64,000 bases of DNA, taken from the sequence record KX130864, one strand, 5' to 3'. Shown here in pieces: positions 47,314 through 50,045 of the stretch. The number at the start of each line of letters is the position of its first letter. The first letter of the stretch is position 1. A program made the position numbers and the translations under genes. A model generated the notes under the pieces. It worked only from the letters and a program-made list of their open reading frames with translations, made no database searches and was not told the origin of the DNA. This DNA is from Shigella phage SHBML-50-1.

Positions 47314-47895
47314 TCATTTATATACTGATTCCGTAAGGGTTGTTACTTCATCTATTTTATACCAATGCGTTTCAACCATTTCACGCTTGCTTATATCATC
47401 AAGAAAACTTGCATCTAATTGAACCGTTGAATTAACACGATGCCTTTTAACGATGCGAGAAACAACTACTTCATCTGCATAAGGTAATGCAGCATATAGT
47501 AGAGCGGGTCCTCCAATTACACTTACTTTGGAATTCTGATCAAGCATAGTCTCGAATGGTGCATTAGGGCTTGACACTTGAATTTCGCCACCAGAAATGT
47601 AAGTTATATATTGCGCCCAAGTAATATAGAAATGTGCTAAATCACCGTCTTTAGTTACAGGATAATCACGCTCAAGGTCACACACCACAATATGGCTACG
47701 ACCGGGAAGTAATGTAGATAATGACTGGAACGTTTTAGCACCCATAATCATAATTGTTCCTTCGGTACGAGCTTTAAAATTCTGGAGGTCCTTTTTAACT
47801 CGTCCCCATGGTAACCCATCACCTAAACCGAATGCTAATTCATTAAAGCCTTCGACTGTTTTAGTTGGAGCATAAGCAAATACTAATTTAATCAT
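47314..47895 (-). CDS. frd: dihydrofolate reductase
   Basis: 193 aa; T4 Frd size; adjacent to td. Confidence 0.92.
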
Positions 47896-48272
47896 TTTAA
47901 TTCCTTAGTTGCCTTTTTGATGGCATTAAAATCTTTGCGAATATCAAGAACCAATTTATAAAGATGTTTAATTATATCTGTATCAAAATATGATACCGCA
48001 CAACGAGAATTGCGAATATCTTCTAATGAATACTTGCTTTCACTTGTACCATATCCAATGATACCACTAATGCACTTGTCATTAAGCGTATATTTCTGTG
48101 GACCATCAATAATATTTTTAGGATAGATGTAAAGGCTCCAATCAAATTTTTGTTCAAGCGTATTAACCTTAACTTCAAGAATCAGTTCAGGATGTGCATC
48201 ATCTTTAGCAAAGCAAGTGTATTCAGTAAGCATTATATTTTCCTCAAATTCATTTAAATCAAGACTATGCAA
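47892..48272 (-). CDS. hypothetical protein (frd.1-like position)
   Basis: 126 aa ORF. Confidence 0.55.
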
Positions 48273-48325
48273 TTTTTAAAGCATTGCATAATAGAATTCA
48301 TCATTCATAAACTCAAATACAAAAA

Positions 48326-48685
48326 TTATATTATCTCCCATCGAAAAGGGTCAGGAGCATATCCGATAGAGTTAATCATTTTAACTAAAGTTACCATTCC
48401 TTTGTTAACTGCTTGTGCGATTTCATCAAAAACTTCATCGCTATCATCATAAAGGTCATTAAAAAGTTCTAACACGTTCTTCTGAACTTTTAATTTATGA
48501 CCAACAATCTCGCCTACAGTAAATTCGTTTCCGCCGATTCCAGTGTAAAACGTAATTACACCAGTTAACAGACTTTCGCGAGAATCTAGGTCATGTGATA
48601 AATTAATATAAGCCATCCCGGGTGCAGTTTTAAGTTGGCAACGAATTCTTACTTGGGTAATTCCGGTTACATGAATGTCGGACAT
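48326..48685 (-). CDS. hypothetical protein
   Basis: 119 aa ORF. Confidence 0.55.
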   Translation of the reverse strand: MSDIHVTGITQVRIRCQLKTAPGMAYINLSHDLDSRESLLTGVITFYTGIGGNEFTVGEIVGHKLKVQKNVLELFNDLYDDSDEVFDEIAQAVNKGMVTLVKMINSIGYAPDPFRWEII

Positions 48686-48695
48686 ATTATTTTCC

Positions 48696-48938
48696 TCAAA
48701 TAGACTTTTTCACAATTTTCCAATCAGCTTTAAACTGATCAACGTCAGAATGGTAAATCCAGAATCCTGCGCTTTCTCCGTCTTCATAAAGAGGACATCC
48801 ATCGCATTCATCTTCCCATCCCATATCACGTAAAAGATGTTCAGCTTTTTCAATGAGTTCAGAATCTTTACCGATGATATTAAAATACCATTTACCTCTA
48901 ACTTCTGAATCTTTGATGCTCTGGCGTTGTAATCTCAT
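48696..48938 (-). CDS. hypothetical protein
   Basis: 80 aa ORF with CDGC motif. Confidence 0.5.
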   Translation of the reverse strand: MRLQRQSIKDSEVRGKWYFNIIGKDSELIEKAEHLLRDMGWEDECDGCPLYEDGESAGFWIYHSDVDQFKADWKIVKKSI

Positions 48939-48998
48939 TTTATTCTCCTCAGTAGTTGATAGGGTAATAGTATCACACTACTACCCTGTTGTAAACAA

Positions 48999-49292
48999 TT
49001 ATTTTTGAATTTTATCGAGCCACTTACCAAGCTTAATCATTTCTTTAGTAGCCTTTTCCATACTTCTGAACTTAACCAATAGAGGATAGGTATCGACACC
49101 AATAACTAAACTGGTTACAAGACTGTGTTCACCCACAAGCCATAACGAATACGTTTGAATATCGAGCCCGTAATTTCTGTCTTTGTGGACCCGTACACCC
49201 ATCACTTCAAATTTCTCACTAGCTTTTTCTACCGCATCCAGGAAATCGTCTTTAGTCATATTAGGCCTTAAAAGTTTTTCGCAAAAGTTCAA
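48999..49292 (-). CDS. hypothetical protein
   Basis: 97 aa ORF; true start may be the internal MTKDD Met (about 49259). Confidence 0.5.
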   Translation of the reverse strand: MNFCEKLLRPNMTKDDFLDAVEKASEKFEVMGVRVHKDRNYGLDIQTYSLWLVGEHSLVTSLVIGVDTYPLLVKFRSMEKATKEMIKLGKWLDKIQK

Positions 49293-49626
49293 TGATTTCG
49301 TCTACATTGTTTTCATCTACAATGCAGTGAATTTTTGTTACGCCAGAAACCTTGTCTTTGACTTCATCTTCTTCAGAAGTCGGTTCTTTATACTCGCGAA
49401 AACAATGAAATTCGTCTTCACAAACGTTAAAGTAAAAATGCTTTCCATTTGCGCATTCAATGTGTTTTATTACTCTAAATCCATCAACAAAGAAAGCTTC
49501 TTTAACTTCAAACCATCCGCCGTTTTCTTGAATAATTTTAACTATTGATGAATTAGAACGTGGGCGATAATTAATAAATGTATCAATAAGTCTTGGAACA
49601 AGCTCATACTTTTTGCCGATATACAT
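49261..49626 (-). CDS. hypothetical Cys/His-rich protein
   Basis: 121 aa from MYIGKKYEL (GAGGAAA RBS upstream); track ORF begins earlier at a non-ATG codon. Confidence 0.5.
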   Translation of the reverse strand: MYIGKKYELVPRLIDTFINYRPRSNSSIVKIIQENGGWFEVKEAFFVDGFRVIKHIECANGKHFYFNVCEDEFHCFREYKEPTSEEDEVKDKVSGVTKIHCIVDENNVDEIIELLRKTFKA

Positions 49627-49646
49627 TACGGTTTCCTCATTTTGAT

Positions 49647-49666
49647 AGGGGCTTGATAGAGCCCCT
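49647..49666 (-). terminator. hairpin in the frd-32 small-ORF cluster
   Basis: GGGGC-TTGATAGA-GCCCC. Confidence 0.4.
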
Positions 49667-49672
49667 TGATAA

Positions 49673-49900
49673 TTATTGTTCAATCAGTCCCATGTAAAAT
49701 TCTGCGTCTTCAGAATCCATGCCATCACAATATTCATTAGCCATAAAGCGGGTGAGGTCTTCAAGAGGACCTTCAATAACAATTTGAATACTCCAAAACT
49801 TAGAATCTTGTACGCTTGTGATACTAAGTTCAGGATAACGATTACGAATAATCTCTTCAATATATTCAAAATCAACGATGTCAATATCAACTTTAGCCAT
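49673..49900 (-). CDS. hypothetical small acidic protein
   Basis: 75 aa from [11 protein letters not shown] (AGAGGA RBS 8 nt upstream); track ORF extends upstream. Confidence 0.5.
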
Positions 49901-50004
49901 ATTATTTTCCTCTTTAATCATCAGCAGTATTGCCGATAGTTGTATAGTACCATGGAAGGACAAGGATGTAAACAGCTTTGTGAAAAAATTTTTGAAATAA
50001 AAAA

Positions 50005-50023
50005 GGGGACCTCTAGGGTCCCC
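50005..50023 (-). terminator. terminator downstream of gene 32
   Basis: GGGGACC-TCTAG-GGTCCCC flanked by A/T runs. Confidence 0.6.
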
Positions 50024-50045
50024 AATTAATTAGTAATATAATCTG

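Follow-up and report, generated by a model that had tools for sequence, protein, structure and literature searches.

Six small accessory genes in the hyperplastic interval between gene 32 and frd of Shigella phage SHBML-50-1

The space between frd and gene 32 in Shigella phage SHBML-50-1 is occupied by six consecutive small genes, all on the minus strand, at positions 47892-50045 of the window, by which we mean the whole 64,000-nucleotide stretch of sequence record KX130864 that was analyzed. The dihydrofolate reductase gene, frd (47314..47895), bounds the interval on its downstream side, and gene 32, for the ssDNA-binding protein (50046..50954), on its upstream side; both are likewise on the minus strand, and frd is 95% identical to that of T4 in nucleotide sequence and 97% identical in protein. 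The six ORFs, correctly placed by the initial annotation, are confirmed to be real accessory genes. Three are frd.1, frd.2, and frd.3 of phage T4, and the other three are cassettes that T4 is without; all six were already known, being catalogued in many phage genomes as hypothetical proteins. Running from gene 32 toward frd, they are gene A, or frd.3 (49900..49673, 75 aa); gene B, an allele of frd.2 (49626..49261, 121 aa); gene C (49259..48999, 86 aa; RB51ncORF239c, phrog_4423); gene D, or frd.1 (48938..48696, 80 aa; DUF5417); gene E (48685..48326, 119 aa; DUF7247, RB51ncORF237c); and gene F (48233..47892, 113 aa; RB51ncORF236c, phrog_8592).

The ORFs had been described as 75-126 aa long, with short overlaps and good ribosome-binding sites, and this holds in part. 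With ATG starts backed by Shine-Dalgarno sequences, the lengths run from 75 to 121 aa; F reaches 126 aa only if an upstream TTG is taken as its start. The sole overlap with a neighbor is that of F with frd (ATGA), the gaps elsewhere in the interval being 1, 10, 46, 60, and 92 nt. GAGGA-type Shine-Dalgarno sequences precede five of the six genes, but C, which starts 1 nt past the stop of B, has a weaker AAGG; a ribosome-binding site/start block of 15 nt is repeated at four of the interval's genes. The characterization of several products as acidic or Cys/His-containing is accurate as a matter of composition, with pI values of 4.05 for A, 4.86 for E, 4.91 for D, and 5.59 for B, and with four Cys and four His residues in B. 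However, these residues of B are not conserved in its family, and zinc binding through them was rejected on that ground. Among the interval genes, a conserved CDxCP motif is present in D alone.

The six ORFs are more than chance, since the dN/dS values against orthologues are about 0.04 to 0.5 for all six in pairs with informative divergence, indicating purifying selection. The absence of functional annotations and the near lack of relatives for F might suggest that some ORFs are not genes but stay open by chance in AT-rich spacer sequence, but synonymous change is far above non-synonymous change in all six, F included, the Shine-Dalgarno sequences are in place, product lengths are kept across genera, and a Pfam or PHROG family exists for each; we regard this idea as effectively refuted. 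Each of the six proteins has a 98.8-100% identical copy, labeled “hypothetical protein,” in GenBank phages. A common origin of the six families was considered and rejected: all-against-all hhalign comparison of the interval families gave probabilities of <8%, with the exception of frd.3 against a paralogous family of other genera, and a phmmer search of the six proteins against all ORFs in the window returned self-matches only.

In T4 (NC_000866, T4p240-242) the orthologues of D, B, and A are frd.1, frd.2, and frd.3, with protein identities of 96%, 68%, and 100%, respectively, and their order, strand, and flanking genes are the same as here. The window differs from T4 in interleaving C, E, and F among these genes, in carrying a different N-terminal allele of frd.2, and in missing the 22-aa hydrophobic mini-ORF found upstream of frd.1 in T4. 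The initial annotation was right that T4 has fewer ORFs at this place, and the six are not all housekeeping genes of T4. The suggestion that some ORFs are lineage-specific fares less well: C, E, and F are extra relative to T4, because T4 has frd.1, frd.2, and frd.3 only, but they are found in 350, 464, and 78 phage records, respectively.

The closest relatives of the interval are in RB51, RB68, wV7, Ac3, and vB-Eco-KMB40, which have the same six genes in the same order (RB51ORF236-241), annotated as hypothetical, with DNA identity of 97-97.7% over 90-100% of the interval. Differences are nonetheless present: the frd.2 allele of RB51 is just 40% identical to that of the window, and KMB40 has another C terminus of F and an frd.3 that is 87% identical. 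Across 29 T4-like loci, gene order is mostly preserved, and the gp32-frd interval varies from about 0.7 to 3.1 kb (sizes as tabulated for the loci) and includes about 26 ORF families. This wide size range and number of families make it a classic hyperplastic region, in agreement with its initial description as hypervariable. Ten alternative cassettes that occupy the same interval in other phages matched no Pfam family.

Gene A matches Pfam Phage_FRD3 (PF05798) over profile positions 1-75 of 75, with 135.6 bits against a gathering cut-off of 28.1. A 100% identical copy is present in T4-type records, and dN/dS is 0.09-0.49. The frd.3 mRNA is among the abundant NAD-capped RNAs of T4. Gene B matches Pfam FRD2 (PF03197) with 109.8 bits against a cut-off of 29, its residues 28-120 aligning with profile positions 2-95 of 96. 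The N-terminal half of B is 56% identical to that of T4 and 24% identical to that of RB51, compared to 96% and 67% for the C-terminal half; frd.2 is a domain-level mosaic in which the N-terminal half varies and the C-terminal half is conserved. In the CRISPRi-ART study of T4, knock-downs of frd.1 and frd.3 were “Not Fit,” and frd.2 was marginally “Fit” (score of 0.83, p = 0.027), the sole T4 gene of unknown function to be so called.

For the N-terminal domain of T4 Frd.2, AlphaFold3 predicts an LSm/SH3-like barrel akin to GoF and MotB.1; the fold family, known from AlphaFold3 models of T4 Frd.2, has an N-terminal five-stranded bent antiparallel beta-barrel (PMC12152347). B is a clear FRD2-family member, and its product might be LSm/Hfq-like and act on RNA, altering how stable particular phage or host transcripts are or how well they are translated. 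Stabilization of a reporter RNA by the GoF(D25Y) mutant (PMC12152347) and the singular “Fit” call for frd.2 would be consistent with such an activity. However, wild-type GoF and MotB.1 showed no RNA effect in that study, none is reported for Frd.2, the closest structural neighbors of Frd.2 are FeoA-like SH3 domains rather than Hfq, and a T4 frd.2 amber mutant plates normally (PMC12152347). The “Fit” call is itself marginal, and both the fold and the RNA role are predictions for the T4 protein, to which B is only 56% identical in its N-terminal half; we consider an RNA-directed function of B unlikely. E and F were also considered as extra LSm-like relatives of Frd.2 and were rejected, with profile comparison showing no sequence kinship with B.

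Gene C is a clean gene-sized indel relative to T4. It has a dN/dS of 0.04 at a pS of about 0.5, and its AF2 model (pLDDT of 87) has an alpha-beta3-alpha layout. The gene has been exchanged between Straboviridae, Phapecoctavirus, Drexlerviridae, and Pseudomonas/Pectobacterium phages. Gene D matches Pfam DUF5417 (PF17438) with 115.4 bits against a cut-off of 23.9, an alignment of 10 sequences shows its CDxCP and GFWI motifs to be invariant, and its Shine-Dalgarno sequence contains GGAG. Homologues of frd.1 are present in 1416 phage records, Drexlerviridae included. Drexlerviridae also carry C and frd.1, and Phapecoctavirus carries C and E, in each case within arrays of small hypothetical genes. 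The low dN/dS of C and the number of genomes with frd.1 suggest more than marginal roles for both. Around the homologues of C, D, and E in other phage families, the neighboring genes are all hypothetical, bar one near the DUF5417 gene of KP36, where a DNA methyltransferase is found.

Gene E matches Pfam DUF7247 (PF23905) with 111.1 bits against a cut-off of 27, and all 64 of its 64 database relatives carry this family. It lies directly downstream of frd.1 in those T4-like loci that have E, and its AF2 model (pLDDT of 72) shows a five-stranded antiparallel sheet and two helices. T4 keeps only the ribosome-binding site, the ATG, and 16 codons of E, and because this stump remains, the smaller gene set of T4 is at least partly due to deletion. 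A second stump is found on the minus strand in the spacer between E and F (48239..48341): in other Tequatrovirus genomes the slot of F is held by an alternative 81-aa gene, and the spacer is the decayed 5′ end of that gene, some 32 codons long and interrupted by a stop. The spacer is 83% identical to L004 over 103 nt and includes a 10-bp palindrome (48292..48264). Gene F is an ORFan, with only 2 real clusters among 1.84 billion representatives, and has a dN/dS of 0.09-0.29 (pS of 0.56 and pN of 0.09 against VR5). P0088, a candidate distant relative of F, was rejected as spurious, being a translated tandem repeat. F adjoins frd with overlapping coordinates in the Dhakavirus, Mosigvirus, and Yersinia-phage loci examined, and the stop of F overlaps the start of frd in all four genus-level contexts examined.

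An early-promoter pattern (TTTACA-N17-TACTAT) matches the window six times, compared to 0.05 expected, always on the minus strand, and two of the matches are in the interval. P1, upstream of frd.3 (49944..49973; GTTTACA-N-TGgTACTAT), is a T4-type early promoter, and P2 (48996..48967; GTTTACA-N-TGaTACTAT) is the same early promoter, identical in sequence, that stands upstream of frd.1 in T4. A terminator scan found a rho-independent terminator hairpin after gene 32 (50005..50023; GGGGACC-CTAGA-GGTCCCC and then a T run) that folds at -14.3 kcal/mol. A 12-bp hairpin overlaps P2 (48987..48961), and a GC-rich 7-bp hairpin in the frd.3-frd.2 spacer (49647..49666) is kept in other Tequatrovirus genomes with stem and loop altered; these promoters and hairpins are all on the minus strand. 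The scan found no terminator between the P2 transcription unit and frd, so P2 transcripts would read into frd. The MotA middle promoter pattern (a TGCTTnA box 10-14 nt upstream of TAnnnT) has 14 matches in the window, none of them in 47892-50045, and Rfam gave no credible RNA-family match. We infer early expression in SHBML-50-1 from the promoter motifs and the T4 literature.

A PeSL element is defined as a stem-loop with a sigma-70-like early promoter just after it and then a Shine-Dalgarno sequence and start, beside variable ORFs; for those of PST/T4 the promoter consensus is TTTACW-N17-TAYWAT (PMC4122927). Positions 50023-49900 have this arrangement, reading hairpin, TTTACA-17-TACTAT, and then GAGGAAAATAATATG. 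At a second site, 48996-48939, the promoter, Shine-Dalgarno sequence, and start are all present, and we class it as a PeSL variant because its hairpin overlaps the promoter. As in the PeSL elements described by Comeau et al. 2014 (PMC4122927) and Arbiol et al. 2010, the layout goes together with borders of ORFs that differ between close relatives. The canonical layout, however, is found here only at gene 32/frd.3, and two of three mapped breakpoints fall within the 5′ ends of genes or coincide with short microhomologies and are not in PeSLs.

The explanation that we consider probable, taken as a whole, is that the interval is a hyperplastic region of an RB51/wV7/KMB40-like Tequatrovirus with two early promoters, turnover of gene cassettes, and products that bind their targets stoichiometrically. 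The six unrelated small genes have been gained and lost independently. Transcription would begin as soon as the phage infects, at two host sigma-70 “early” promoters, with P1 serving frd.3, frd.2, and C, and P2 serving frd.1, E, and F and reading on into frd. Gene content shifts through insertion, deletion, and replacement of cassettes, with breakpoints at PeSL-type promoter/stem-loop elements, near-identical ribosome-binding blocks, and gene 5′ ends. The products are small, soluble, and mostly acidic, with no enzyme signature, and they would most likely act early in infection by binding host or phage macromolecules stoichiometrically; binding rather than catalysis is the default inference from their size, charge, timing, and plasticity. 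Such genes would help the phage under certain conditions and could be spared in laboratory hosts.

The initial annotation noted that such regions are enriched for host-takeover or anti-defense factors, and a function of this kind is a plausible, reasonable prior for the interval genes. In its specific form, at least one cassette, with C, the frd.1-E pair, and F as the most plausible choices, would be a dedicated anti-phage-defense inhibitor that binds or sequesters a defense component or signal. Early promoters, small and acidic proteins, the patchy presence of cassettes among near-identical phages, the spread of C, frd.1, and E to unrelated phage families, the dispensability of frd.1 and frd.3 in the laboratory host, and the diversifying N-terminal half of frd.2 all point this way, but these features would fit any early accessory gene equally well. 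Furthermore, none of the six proteins has a match at E ≤ 1 among the 5027 defense models of PADLOC-DB, sequence searches of the PDB with all six and profile searches with the A, C, D, and E families found nothing, and NCBIfam likewise gave nothing. No similarity was detected to the anti-defense proteins solved in the PDB (Acr, Acb, Tad, and Ocr/Arn-type mimics, thus anti-CRISPR, anti-CBASS, and anti-Thoeris included), either by sequence and profile for all six or by fold for C and E, whose AlphaFold models have no significant fold neighbors. Literature searches with the DUF and Pfam names returned nothing, and we found no paper naming an anti-defense role for any interval gene. We hold a dedicated inhibitor to be rather doubtful.

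A very improbable reading, in our estimation, is that the genes are auxiliaries of nucleotide metabolism or replication and, to judge from their position, would serve the dNTP-synthesizing and replication machinery of T4, with F, for example, partnering or modulating dihydrofolate reductase and frd.3 acting as an acidic partner of gp32. Placement between gene 32 and frd-td-nrdA is kept across genera, the F/frd stop-start overlap suggests translational coupling, and P2 transcripts would run into frd. However, F is in just 78 records compared to hundreds of frd-carrying T4-like records, T4 and many other phages live without C, E, and F, the T4 frd.1 and frd.3 knock-downs are neutral, and C, frd.1, and E occur in phage families with different replication and nucleotide-metabolism modules. 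It is possible, though less likely than not, that one or more of the cassettes represent a new family of early phage inhibitors whose target lies in host defense or takeover and whose fold differs from every solved structure, C and the frd.1-E pair being the best candidates. An arms race with a polymorphic host target could lie behind the variability of the N-terminal half of frd.2.

The finding is an ordinary one, in that this is a normal hyperplastic region whose genes GenBank, Pfam, and PHROGs already list without a function, and its practical value is a short, well-delimited list of candidates for phage accessory-gene screens. C earns its place by combining mobility across phage families with tight constraint. 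For frd.1 the grounds are its presence in >1,400 phage genomes, its own early promoter, and the conserved CDxCP motif; for E, its constant position behind frd.1 in T4-like phages; for F, its ORFan status and coupling to frd; and for frd.2, the hint of a fitness effect in the T4 data together with the exchange of its N-terminal domain among closely related phages. Two gene remnants, that of E in T4 and that of the alternative gene before F, are clean examples of cassette replacement in T4-like genomes.

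The interval between frd (47314-47895) and gene 32 (50046-50954), both on the minus strand of this T4-like (Tequatrovirus) genome segment, holds six consecutive small ORFs on the same strand at 47892-50045, as the initial annotation had proposed. In the direction of transcription they are A (frd.3; 49900..49673, 75 aa), B (frd.2; 49626..49261, 121 aa), D (frd.1; 48938..48696, 80 aa), and three further genes: C (49259..48999, 86 aa), which lies between B and D, and E (48685..48326, 119 aa) and F (48233..47892, 113 aa), which follow D. Five of the six have a Shine-Dalgarno of the GAGGA type, and that of C is AAGG. 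C starts 1 nt past the stop of B, and only F overlaps a neighbor, sharing an ATGA with frd. The products of A, E, D, and B are acidic (pI 4.05, 4.86, 4.91, and 5.59), and those of F and C are near neutral (6.72 and 7.95). In orthologue comparisons at useful divergence, dN/dS was 0.04 to 0.5 for the six genes, including 0.04 for C (pS about 0.5) and 0.09 for F compared with phage VR5. All six are real genes.

The best-supported account is that the interval is an early-transcribed, hyperplastic region whose small accessory genes have been shuffled independently of each other. The window contains six matches to the T4 early-promoter pattern, GTTTACA-N14-16-TGnTAnnnT, every one of them on the minus strand, whereas 0.05 would be expected; one precedes A (P1, 49973-49944) and another precedes D (P2, 48996-48967), and no MotA-type middle promoter was found in the interval. 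Two other matches, at 25070-25099 and 40346-40375 (minus strand, ~15 kb apart), are the same 30-mer, GTTTACAAGTCCCTCGTGTTGTGTTATAGT. Downstream of gene 32 lies a terminator hairpin (50023-50005), and the hairpin, promoter, Shine-Dalgarno, and ATG in front of A correspond to the composite "PeSL" element of T4/PST, whose promoter consensus is TTTACW-N17-TAYWAT (PMC4122927). At P2, a 12-bp hairpin covers part of the spacer and the -10 element, and the T4 copy of this hairpin and promoter is identical. A 15-nt block, GAGGAAAATAATATG, is repeated at the start sites of A, D, E, and F. The frd.3-frd.2 spacer contains a GC-rich hairpin (49647-49666, minus strand) without a T tract; T4, RB51, and other contigs keep it with differing stem extensions and loops. 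An Rfam search of the interval matched no family.

Across 29 T4-like loci retrieved via gp32, the gp59-gp32-interval-frd-td synteny is kept. The interval, in the loci tabulated, measures from about 0.7 to 3.1 kb and the set carries about 26 ORF families in it, so that the label of hypervariable region given earlier is justified. A is present in 25 of these loci, D in 24, B in 17, E in 14, C in 5, and F in 3, and in this set E lies directly 3' of D wherever it occurs. Phage-collection records number 1416 for D, 765 for B, 732 for A, 464 for E, 350 for C, and 78 for F. Outside the T4-likes, C occurs in Phapecoctavirus, the T1-like Tunavirus and Webervirus, and Pseudomonas and Pectobacterium phages, D in Webervirus, and E in Phapecoctavirus, each time as part of an array of small hypothetical genes. 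Among 1.84 billion protein representatives, F is represented by no more than two real clusters. In the loci examined, from Tequatrovirus, Dhakavirus, Mosigvirus, and Yersinia phages, it adjoins frd and the coordinates of the two genes overlap. The A-to-F order is not universal, since in the Dhakavirus phage VR5 (locus L087, 1196-2942) it reads gp32, frd.2, C-like, frd.3, frd.1, a 63-aa ORF, F, and frd.

T4 has only frd.1, frd.2, and frd.3 here, in agreement with the earlier statement of fewer ORFs. Relative to T4, the window has extra sequence at 47897-48627 (F and most of E) and at 49010-49267 (C). Between its frd.1 and frd, T4 still has the RBS and ATG of E followed by a stump of 16 codons, MYVIEIIQVSIRFQLK*, and is therefore a deletion derivative for this gene; the remnant (locus L001, T4 genome about 145704-145760) is unannotated in NC_000866. 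C corresponds to a clean, gene-sized indel with a short TTCAAAAA-like microhomology at its borders. The 92-nt E-F spacer resembles (83% identity in 103 nt) the 5' end, about 32 codons, of a different gene, which encodes 81 aa and occupies the F position in other Tequatrovirus contigs; because the window copy is broken by a stop, F has replaced the body of that gene. Within this decayed remnant lies a 10-bp palindrome, ATTATGCAAT...ATTGCATAGT (48264-48292, minus strand), which is perfect (10/10) in the coding sequence of the intact 81-aa gene of contig L004 and is possibly a recombination or RNA-structure signal. frd.2 itself is a domain mosaic: its N-terminal half has 56% identity to T4 and 24% to RB51, compared to 96% and 67% for its C-terminal half. 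Between the early promoter and frd.1, T4 (L001 about 4020-4090, genome about 146019-146087) and two related contigs (L004, 7755; L005, 7751) have a hydrophobic mini-ORF of 22 aa, MFAPYIMAAVMLVCLYLLIKAC, that is unannotated and is preceded by a GGAG Shine-Dalgarno of its own; the window lacks it, and among the loci checked only genomes without C have it.

The interval genes and the type of region are already cataloged. A, B, D, and E match Phage_FRD3, FRD2, DUF5417, and DUF7247 with scores far above the Pfam gathering thresholds; Pfam has no family for C or F, nor for ten alternative cassettes of the same interval. C and F belong to PHROGs 4423 and 8592, and all PHROGs of the interval genes are labeled "unknown function". 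RB51 carries the same six genes as RB51ORF236-241, as does vB-Eco-KMB40 at 97.7% DNA identity, and by tblastn each protein has a 98.8 to 100% identical copy among deposited phages. Profile-profile comparison of the six families revealed no kinship among them. Two DUF7247 matches are fusions, P0039 (196 aa) of E to the alternative 81-aa gene and P0085 (153 aa) with an SMR-pump Pfam domain and the JGI label "small multidrug resistance pump"; both are probably read-through or gene-calling artifacts of short contigs.

The anti-defense or host-takeover role suggested initially for such genes stands as a prior only. PADLOC and NCBIfam searches of the six proteins gave no match, nor did sequence and profile searches of the PDB with the interval proteins. 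Abundant NAD-capped T4 RNAs include frd.3 mRNA. The N-terminal domain of T4 Frd.2 has a predicted LSm/SH3-like fold of the same family as GoF and MotB.1, and a T4 frd.2 amber mutant plates normally (PMC12152347). By CRISPRi-ART, frd.2 was the sole T4 gene of unknown function scored "Fit", marginally (score, 0.83; p = 0.027), and both frd.1 and frd.3 came out as "Not Fit" (PMC11879866). Binding, not catalysis, is the most likely mode of action of the small accessory products, and functional screens could sensibly take C, the frd.1-E pair, F, and the variable domain of frd.2 as candidates.

The flanks also differ from those of T4. The gene 32-gene 59 gap is only about 100 bp (50955-51053) and lacks the homing-endonuclease gene segG found there in T4 and vB-Eco-KMB40. 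td is an uninterrupted 286-aa ORF (46043-46903, minus strand) without the group I intron and I-TevI of T4 td. Between frd and td lies a 117-aa ORF (46941-47294, minus strand; phrog_1928, RB32ORF229c), which is absent from T4, where frd and td overlap; since many other T4-like genera have relatives with 24 to 44% identity at this position, the ORF may have been lost from T4.
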